Notes under the pieces: model-generated
Database searches by the model: none
What the model saw: the letters and a program-made list of their open reading frames with translations, nothing else
What the model was told of the DNA's origin: nothing
Program-made: the position numbers and the translations under genes
In this document: one piece after another, positions 264-699 of the stretch
Layout of the letters: each line of letters begins with the position of its first letter
How positions within the stretch are numbered: the first letter of the stretch is position 1
NCBI GenBank assembly: GCA_947601485.1
Contig: CANQGF010000001.1
Coordinates: 1 to 56,198, forward strand
DNA length: 56,198 nucleotides
Source: an uncultured Bacilli bacterium
Lineage (GTDB): Bacteria > Bacillota_I > Bacilli_A > RF39 > UBA660
Direction of reading: 5' to 3'

Positions 264-292
264 TCGACAAATTCCGATATATATATTATAAT
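264..292 (+). promoter_or_regulatory. Sigma-A type promoter of the small-toxin transcript
   Basis: TCGACA (264-269), 17 nt, TATAAT (287-292). The predicted +1 at about 299-300 coincides with the first base of the long 5' pairing arm. Confidence 0.5.
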
Positions 293-378
293 TAGCTTTA
301 GAGATACACTTGATTGTTTGGTGTTTTAACCTCGGTCCGCATTTACTTGTTTAGTTTATACGGATAGGAGGTGGTCCT

Positions 379-498
379 ATGAAGGGATATCTTAATGGAA
401 TATTTAATTATTCTAGCTATTATTATTTATTTAATAAACGCAAAAGATACTCACAACAAGGATTAAAAAAAGAACACCTAATCAGCATTTATGATTAA
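379..498 (+). CDS. 39-aa leader-type small ORF (MKGYLNGIFNYSSYYYLFNKRKRYSQQGLKKEHLISIYD)
   Basis: ATG lies 7 nt after a perfect AGGAGG (366-371). No recognisable family. It may only provide translational coupling to the overlapping hydrophobic ORF. Confidence 0.3.
   Translation: MKGYLNGIFNYSSYYYLFNKRKRYSQQGLKKEHLISIYD
395..466 (+). CDS. Candidate type I toxin peptide, 23 aa (MEYLIILAIIIYLINAKDTHNKD)
   Basis: Hydrophobic helix plus charged tail. AAGGGA sits 7 nt upstream. Overlaps the leader ORF out of frame. Its stop codon abuts the terminator of the antisense RNA, the same geometry as the modules at 40.3 and 40.7 kb. Confidence 0.45.
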   Translation: MEYLIILAIIIYLINAKDTHNKD

Positions 499-617
499 GG
501 TGTTCTCCACCAAAATTATTGGACCGAGAAACACCTAGCTCAACAAAATCAAGTGTATCTCTTTTTTTGTCCTTAAAATAGGATAGAATAAATTTCTTCC
601 TACTAATATTATATATC
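465..617 (-). ncRNA. Candidate antisense (antitoxin) sRNA convergent with the toxin mRNA
   Basis: Minus-strand promoter: TTGATA (652-647), 17 nt, TAATAT (629-624). Minus-strand intrinsic terminator: agaacaccttaatc/gattaggtgttct (506-471) plus a T-run (471-465). Complementary to roughly the last 100 nt of the toxin mRNA. Confidence 0.45.
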
Positions 618-699
618 AACTTGATATTAAAATGCAATTAAAATAATATCAACCTAATATTAATTAGTAAAAATATTATACACCAAATAATTTTAAAGT

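Follow-up and report, generated by a model that had tools for sequence, protein, structure and literature searches.

Toxin-antitoxin (TA) systems of type I encode a hydrophobic protein of 20–60 amino acids (aa) on an mRNA of 150–400 nt (PMC8594479). In hok/sok (with mok; plasmid R1) and Ldr/Rdl, the two ends of the full-length toxin mRNA pair with each other and thereby lock it, and an out-of-frame leader with a good ribosome-binding site (RBS) overlaps the ORF of a small hydrophobic toxin (PMC8594479, PMC6733600). The stable primary transcript of AapA/IsoA from Helicobacter pylori is likewise translationally inert through a 5′-3′ long-distance interaction (PMC6733600). In the Firmicute Bacillus subtilis, the TxpA/RatA, BsrG/SR4, BsrE/SR5 and YonT/SR6 pairs have a convergent 3′ antisense RNA with an overlap of ~100 nt (PMC8594479), and the par system (Fst/RNA I-RNA II; Enterococcus faecalis pAD1) and SprA1/SprA1as, also Gram-positive, have convergent RNAs that leave the toxin open reading frame (ORF) free of overlap (PMC8594479). 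Here, we analyzed a 56,198-nt stretch of DNA (hereafter the window) from a 1.37-Mb, 91-contig metagenome-assembled genome (MAG) of an uncultured Bacilli bacterium from rabbit gut, in which an initial annotation had proposed a module with the structural hallmarks of type I systems. Comparison among relatives supported each of these hallmarks, and we conclude that positions 209–649 of the window probably constitute an autonomous type I TA-like cassette. The 23-aa hydrophobic ORF and the predicted mRNA of ~269 nt both lie within the size ranges of type I systems; an antisense RNA complementary to this mRNA is predicted to be encoded in cis, under a promoter and a terminator of its own, and the RBS is mostly hidden in the computed fold.

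The evidence that carries this reading comes first from the ends of the predicted mRNA. AGAGATACACTTGATT, at positions 300–315, is 100% complementary to positions 547–562 over 16 bp, and the minimum-energy fold added two further paired blocks, 320–326/529–535 and 331–339/521–529. In the fold of positions 300–570, ~40 nt of the 5′ end were thus paired with 521–562 in three blocks, as had been annotated, and the T7 run indeed followed the helix directly. The folding energy of this region was −87.4 kcal/mol (z = −8.9); 200 dinucleotide shuffles gave −48.2 ± 4.4 kcal/mol, and not one of them was as stable. No local hairpin preceded the T7 run in the computed fold of the window mRNA.

The same arrangement recurred in 22 full-length copies, whose predicted mRNAs measured 225–299 nt; these relatives are not independent, and counts across copies overstate significance. 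In every one of them, the −10 hexamer (TATAAT, or TAAAAT or TATGAT in a few) ended 5–8 nt upstream of the 5′ arm, a run of 4–7 T followed the 3′ arm, and nucleotides 1–12 paired with the last bases preceding the T-run in whole-transcript minimum-energy folds. In the window, the gap between the −10 box and the 5′ arm is 7 nt, and the consensus-like plus-strand promoter of the initial annotation was present with 11 of 12 matches. The arm sequences vary between subfamilies. RNAalifold, applied to a MAFFT alignment of the 22 sequences, recovered the outer 8 pairs only; MAFFT had shifted the arms, and the covariation counts were left unused. Therefore, covariation was judged by an end-anchored test and an alignment-free test. 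In the alignment-free test on the 22 copies, arms paired better with their cognate partners (mean −37.2 kcal/mol) than with non-cognate ones (−26.0 kcal/mol). In the end-anchored, gap-free register, helix positions 1–10 were paired in 18–20 of 20 copies, and positions 5–12 each showed two to four Watson-Crick pair types. The covariation of the stem arms in homologous loci, a check proposed with the initial annotation, was thereby observed, and the comparison argues that the end-to-end helix is conserved and covarying among the relatives.

Perfect inverted repeats in a multicopy unit of variable location might also mark a miniature transposable element, with 16-bp termini (300–315/547–562) whose complementarity is kept at the DNA level for a transposase. 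We regard this as scarcely credible. The pairing extends over ~40 nt with bulges, the helices hold 51 G·U pairs, and the plus strand forms the more stable structure in 16 of the 22 copies; moreover, the unit conserved between loci (209–649) includes both promoters, which lie outside the repeats. The strand bias and the outlying promoters argue against an inverted repeat maintained as DNA. Additionally, the −10 box stands 5–8 nt before one arm and the T-run right after the other in every copy, and target duplications were not evident.

The boundaries of the unit were given by a copy in another MAG (L050), whose blastn identity of 94.9% to the window was confined to positions 209–649. The sequences on both sides are unrelated, with a tRNA-Glu gene next to the cassette in the window and a tRNA-Arg(TCT) gene in L050, and other copies adjoin unrelated genes of the housekeeping or phage-like kind. 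Because of these sharp borders and the unrelated flanks and neighbors, we interpret the module as an autonomous cassette of ~440 bp. Its placement downstream of tRNA-Glu, which the initial annotation had stressed, is correct for the window and does not extend to the family: tRNA adjacency was seen only for the window and L050, and the two tRNAs differ, so we rejected tRNA linkage as a family trait.

The second line of evidence concerns the hydrophobic ORF, which was present as annotated, with its charged tail, and which ends with TAA at 464–466 out of frame with the overlapping 39-codon leader. Across the lineage, the predicted peptides follow the pattern M-[E/D]-Y-L-[I/V]-I-L, a hydrophobic core and then a tail rich in K, D, H, R and N; their lengths are 17–23 aa, with 21 aa in 20 of 28 distinct modules, and ORFs of 21–23 aa fall below the reporting length of gene callers. 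Coding periodicity was assessed on 17 distinct pattern-found ORFs that had been selected for a length of 21 aa. In the hydrophobic frame, the column entropies at the three codon positions were 0.90, 0.42 and 1.26, and TAA, TGA and TAG were all used at one shared stop position. We read this pattern as the signature of a translated ORF rich in NTN codons. It bears on the suggestion that sense and antisense are simply non-coding regulatory RNAs with no translated ORF. That both RNAs are strongly structured would suit such an explanation, but the three-base periodicity, the conserved length and stop position of the hydrophobic frame, an invariant RBS and ATG, and indels between the two starts that come only in multiples of three make it very unlikely. 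The six peptides searched had no Pfam or NCBIfam match at E ≤ 10, and PHROG gave only weak matches to phrog_21118 (E 0.06–0.2), which were disregarded; together with the Rfam result given below, this agrees with the initial remark that the peptide fits no nameable toxin family.

The leader ORF provides the third line. The perfect AGGAGG annotated inside the stem was found 7 nt before ATG 379, and the out-of-frame overlap of the 39-codon leader with the hydrophobic ORF is a frame relation conserved among the relatives. All copies have a strong RBS for the leader, and all have its ATG except two decayed-looking ones; the core GGTGRT..CCTATGA was invariant in 26 sequences, where it was partly fixed by the search pattern. 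That pattern permitted any spacing between leader and toxin, and the distances observed from the leader ATG to the toxin start were 13, 16, 19, 28 or 31 nt, always 1 mod 3. Past the toxin stop, the leader frame stays open for 17.4 codons on average, compared with 7.4 and 8.1 in the other frames, and in 8 of 21 copies the leader ends at the TGA or TAA of the GGACTGA block in the 3′ arm. Across copies, the leader measures 19 to 59 aa and stops at many places.

Such properties raise the question of whether the leader-frame protein (39–59 aa) is the functional product and the hydrophobic frame an accident of AT-rich sequence. The strong RBS with an ATG start, the conserved frame relation and the unusually long open frame would all fit. 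The entropies do not: a translated leader would show the opposite pattern in the overlap, because the least variable position there (0.42) is the third position of the leader frame, while the most variable (1.26) is the third position of the hydrophobic frame. Moreover, the leader's length ranges from 19 to 59 aa, its C-terminal parts follow RNA-structure motifs and no protein pattern, and in some copies it stops inside the toxin ORF. We therefore hold a functional leader protein to be highly improbable. The entropy comparison among relatives revealed no codon-level conservation of the leader itself, and its openness inside the toxin ORF appears to be largely a by-product of NTN codons, because the T at toxin codon position 2 is the third base of the leader. 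Nevertheless, the leader does not look like noise. Purine runs of the AAGGRA type occur ~3–11 nt upstream of the toxin start in most relatives, and in most copies the conserved leader start, ATG-AAR-GGN, may double as a weak RBS-like element for the toxin.

Access to the leader RBS seems to be limited by the mRNA fold. In silico, its unpaired probability was 0.13 in the window and 0.02–0.36 in most relatives, with 3 of 18 copies at 0.54–0.61. Its partner in the predicted folds was the CCUC of the 5′ block (often so in the relatives) or a CACCU motif. The mRNA contains CCUC and two CACCU motifs as against three AGGUG motifs, which allows alternative pairings. In aapA3, successive CU-rich anti-Shine-Dalgarno (anti-SD) elements could act in turn (PMC6733600), and the alternative CACCU/AGGUG pairings of the cassette recall these elements.

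The fourth line is the antisense unit, whose promoter and terminator we predicted from sequence and conservation. The idea of a convergent antisense RNA covering the mRNA 3′ end was borne out, as both elements are conserved, although the promoter had to be reassigned. The sequence first proposed, TTGATA-17-TAATAT, does exist at 652–624 (9 of 12 matches), but it is not the promoter common to the relatives: its −35 box lies across the border of the conserved block at 649, and the relatives share the promoter at 637–608 instead. From the latter, transcription is predicted to start near 601, which shortens the antisense RNA from the ~150 nt first suggested to ~140 nt. In most of the 22 relatives, a −10 box that is TATAAT or close to it is joined by a −35 box reading TTGCAx, TTGAAA or TTGTAA, 6–58 nt beyond the mRNA T-run; the distance varies because of inserted hairpins, from which the antisense RNA would take its 5′ stem-loop. 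At the other end, the terminator was found to abut the stop codon of the hydrophobic ORF, as annotated: the hairpin 507–470 with its minus-strand T-run 469–463 touches the toxin TAA. A hairpin with a T-rich tail occupied the same place in 18 of 18 representative relatives, with stem sequences that differ. The antisense RNA folds at −42.8 kcal/mol (z = −4.7), and its predicted length in the relatives is 105–184 nt.

A further strong minus-strand promoter, TTGACT-16-TATAAT (702–675), agrees with the consensus at 11 of 12 positions and is placed 67 nt upstream of the conserved antisense one. We rejected it as the main antisense promoter, as it falls outside the block common to L050. Promoters 67–68 nt upstream of the proximal one also occur in the L012/L031 and L030 groups, and the distal promoter could yield a longer antisense isoform of ~207 nt (fold z = −6.2). 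Directly upstream of it, a minus-strand intrinsic terminator at 712–735 ends a unit coming from the right; the region that it terminates, ~735–917, has no clear start codon. It was also observed that the predicted antisense RNA (462–601, minus strand) can itself close end to end, with an A-run and its copy of the mRNA 5′ arm pairing with its own terminator arm and U-run; this closure competes with the local terminator hairpin.

Table 1. Positions of the predicted elements of the cassette and of the adjacent tRNA genes in the window
Feature	Position	Strand	Remarks
Whole cassette	209–649		Block conserved with the near-identical L050 copy at another genomic place
Plus-strand promoter of toxin mRNA	264–292	+	TCGACA-17-TATAAT, 11/12 consensus matches
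Predicted toxin mRNA, ~269 nt	300–568	+	Ends inferred from fold and relatives
5′ arm of end-to-end helix	300–339	+	Blocks 300–318, 320–326, 331–339; bears GGUG and CCUC motifs
Strong ribosome-binding site for leader ATG	366–371	+	AGGAGG, 7 nt before ATG 379
Leader ORF, 39 codons	379–498	+	mok-like; out of frame with toxin ORF
Second, weaker ribosome-binding-like element	382–387	+	AAGGGA, 7 nt before toxin ATG
Predicted toxin ORF, 23 codons	395–466	+	MEYLIILAIIIYLINAKDTHNKD; hydrophobic core and polar/charged tail
mRNA 3′ UTR (untranslated region) hairpin, also minus-strand terminator stem	470–507		−19.2 kcal/mol; minus-strand tail TTTTTAATC
3′ arm of end-to-end helix	521–562	+	Pairs with 5′ arm
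T7 run directly after helix	562–568	+	Putative intrinsic terminator
Predicted antisense (antitoxin) RNA, ~140 nt	462–601	−	Putative ends; covers mRNA 3′ UTR including 3′ arm
5′ stem-loop of antisense RNA	579–602	−	From fold
Conserved antisense promoter	608–637	−	TTGCAT-18-TATAAT; inside conserved cassette
Partial tRNA	1–70		5′-truncated; directly before tRNA-Glu
tRNA-Glu	84–159		Followed by terminator at 170–194

Every element of the annotated module was thus in place, and these features lie far beyond chance, because more than 20 diverged copies repeat them with compensatory changes. The copies were collected in several ways. The same genome holds a second one on contig 31, with 72% identity over exactly the proposed transcript, and within the genus, BLAST located the element in 6 of 42 genomes. 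When 185,579 species genomes were scanned with a sequence pattern, 24 true modules and 4 chance matches were returned; most of the true modules came from rabbit MAGs labeled "uncultured Bacilli", and the others from Candidatus Coprovivens (Bacilli incertae sedis) and from mouse and human gut MAGs. A search with a sequence-only model of the RBS and ORF gave, at E < 1e-5, 25 places spread over 17 of 151 genomes, representing 13 genera of the same order (essentially one family), and the peptides encoded there are of the same type as that of the window. No copy was confirmed in the other families of the class, for which 138 genomes were searched, and the single match outside the family (G219) was the start of a transporter gene, a false positive. 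Phage and plasmid collections gave no blastn match, and the only pattern match on a viral contig was a chance match inside a long ORF. A scan of JGI metagenomes returned one true module (L067) among 5 matches. The window and 8 related loci matched no Rfam family beyond tRNAs and an unrelated L21 leader.

This distribution bears on the strongest competitor of the TA reading, in which the ORF product is a small membrane protein without harmful effect (a regulator, for instance, or a subunit of a membrane complex) whose level is tuned by a cis-antisense RNA and which forms no TA pair. Many small membrane proteins are non-toxic, and the evidence presented above is all structural, with none of it on toxicity. 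Against this, a set of traits suits a selfish type I TA system better than a housekeeping small protein: presence in 6 of 42 genomes of the genus is patchy, the element is multicopy with adjacent duplicated copies, and a sharply bounded cassette lies in different flanks with changing neighbors. In the MAG Lapin-025__bin65, which holds at least 6 copies, two adjacent head-to-tail pairs ~432 bp apart (L053, 65–535; L057, 5494–5964) lie at contig ends, and the assembly breaks suggest further copies. No neighbor was constant among the copies, which adjoin polA/fpg, FTHFS, topoisomerase, Mur ligase, sigma factor and M23/CW_7 lysin-like genes. Decayed copies also occur, one of them with the antisense part only. 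In L018 (G001, ~1410–1590, minus strand), the toxin ORF, 3′ UTR and antisense promoter are kept, and the promoter, 5′ arm and RBS are lost; in L010 (G005, 117–308, minus strand), only the 3′ UTR and antisense part are kept, which makes it a possible orphan antitoxin. The elaborate locking of the mRNA counts among these traits as well. On these grounds, we consider a non-toxic membrane protein rather unlikely, while giving it more weight than the other alternatives treated here.

We propose the following putative mechanism for a TA pair, in which the transcript ends, toxicity, neutralization and order of events are inferred. The plus strand would yield an mRNA of ~269 nt, the first ~40 nt of which pair with the last ~40 nt; the closing helix and T-run probably also terminate transcription. 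The helix would lock the mRNA in a stable form with the RBS mostly paired, and the leader ORF would be read out of frame across the ORF of the presumed membrane toxin. From a promoter just outside the mRNA 3′ end, the minus strand would yield an RNA of ~140 nt that ends at the toxin stop and would therefore be fully complementary to the 3′ UTR and 3′ arm. The antisense RNA and 3′ UTR may then form a duplex of ~100 bp. Antitoxins of the TxpA/RatA and BsrG/SR4 type act through duplex-dependent decay by RNase III, and cleavage and decay of the mRNA could follow here in the same way; the genome does encode RNase III, with a score of 220.6 bits where the cut-off is 166. We regard this as the most economical mechanism because the complementarity to the 3′ UTR extends over ~100 nt and no significant second pairing site was found. 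Any mRNA that escapes would stay locked until its ends are opened or trimmed, after which translation of the leader would expose the toxin start. Two alternative modes of activation are conceivable: one arm might be trimmed, as happens in hok and aapA, or the leader might be translated into the 3′ arm. We put forward tentatively, and with some doubt, a more specific version in which one helix serves as intrinsic terminator, translational lock and antitoxin target, the long leader has been selected to read through the toxin ORF and 3′ UTR into this helix, and leader ribosomes rather than nuclease trimming determine whether the lock closes or opens.

Several points weigh against the TA reading. 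The predicted antisense RNA misses the RBS, and pairing in trans between its 5′ part and the initiation region was not significant (z from +1.6 to −2.7 versus shuffles for the best duplexes) and had no conserved site, which leaves a translational block unexplained. Pairing of the conserved GGAC at the antisense 5′ end with the GUCCU beside the RBS was also considered and was rejected as neither significant nor conserved. Therefore, neutralization rests on an assumed duplex-dependent decay. An antisense RNA acting on the 3′ arm could in principle open the mRNA rather than close it. A terminator that uses the transcript's own 5′ end as its upstream arm would be unusual. With only ~13 residues, the predicted hydrophobic core is short for a transmembrane helix. 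Both RNAs are predictions from sequence and conservation, and no RNA run was listed for this DNA; the toxicity of the peptide and its neutralization by the antisense RNA are presumed. Finally, the search pattern imposed part of the conservation near the ORF start; the model-based matches are free of this pattern, but the model (R1) was built from pattern-found copies.

To place the cassette among known families, we applied the organization rules of the T1TAdb paper (PMC8594479) together with Rfam, Pfam, NCBIfam and PHROG searches. The likeness to Hok/Sok lies in the 5′-3′ fold-back and the leader, which we take as mechanistic analogy and not homology. Hok has ~50 aa and belongs to the Pfam family Hok_Gef, whereas the peptides of the cassette have 21–23 aa and no Pfam match. 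Sok is positioned within the mRNA, at its 5′ leader (PMC8594479), whereas the antisense RNA of the cassette is predicted to converge on the 3′ end from a start beyond the mRNA. Additionally, hok has a separate terminator hairpin, and its hosts are Gram-negative. AapA/IsoA has the lock in common with the cassette, but the position of the antisense RNA differs: IsoA covers the ORF together with the 5′ part and pairs with the 3′-trimmed mRNA only, whereas here the 3′ UTR and locking arm are covered. There is no sequence similarity between the two.

By these rules, the leader and lock also recall Ldr/Rdl, a convergent 3′ antisense RNA that spares the ORF is like that of Fst/RNAII and SprA1, and the long overlap is like that of TxpA/RatA and BsrG/SR4. 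Among the Gram-positive systems, the toxins of the TxpA/BsrG group have 38–59 aa, and their antisense RNAs also overlap the ORF (PMC8594479), whereas the overlap in the cassette ends at the stop codon. A leader ORF and an end-to-end lock are not in the description of that group, and no match to any Rfam family, the antitoxin RNA families included, was obtained for the window or the 8 related loci beyond those named above. Fst and SprA1 resemble the candidate toxin in being short and hydrophobic with a charged tail, but the peptide of the cassette is ~10 residues shorter and has no Fst-type match in Pfam or NCBIfam. The antitoxins of these systems pair at a 5′ region outside the overlap (PMC8594479), and no significant pairing of this kind was found in the cassette. 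The Ibs/Sib loci of Escherichia coli share a very short, very hydrophobic toxin and are often multicopy, but they are without an end-to-end lock or leader ORF, and neither Rfam nor NCBIfam linked them to the cassette. Ibs toxins have 18–19 aa. Sib spans the whole ibs ORF (PMC8594479), whereas the antisense RNA of the cassette stays outside the ORF. The cassette does not fit the definition of any of the compared families. By these rules and searches, we would best place it in a new family of its own among type I systems, one whose architecture is hybrid. In the literature, we found nothing specific on type I systems in RF39 or Tenericutes-type hosts.

Type I TA systems are under-detected, as their toxins are too short for gene callers and their RNAs are without models. 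The present family was confirmed only in uncultured gut Bacilli with small genomes, which belong to one family-level lineage and were sampled from rabbit, mouse and human; it unites Gram-negative traits (a hok/mok-type lock and a leader ORF) with the 3′-convergent antisense RNA of Gram-positive systems. More than 20 diverged natural variants are available for studying the end-to-end helix as a terminator and a lock. Such cassettes could be annotated with the alignment and model, and could in turn flag mobile or unstable regions in MAGs.

A few observations concern the assignment of individual contigs. Three true modules (L037, L040 and L055) lie on contigs binned as Saccharibacteria or Muribaculaceae; most likely, these are mis-binned Bacilli contigs, with transfer as the alternative. 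The module of L040 adjoins a topoisomerase gene. At the left end of the window, the truncated tRNA is probably a tRNA-Ile, with the anticodon GAT read by eye.

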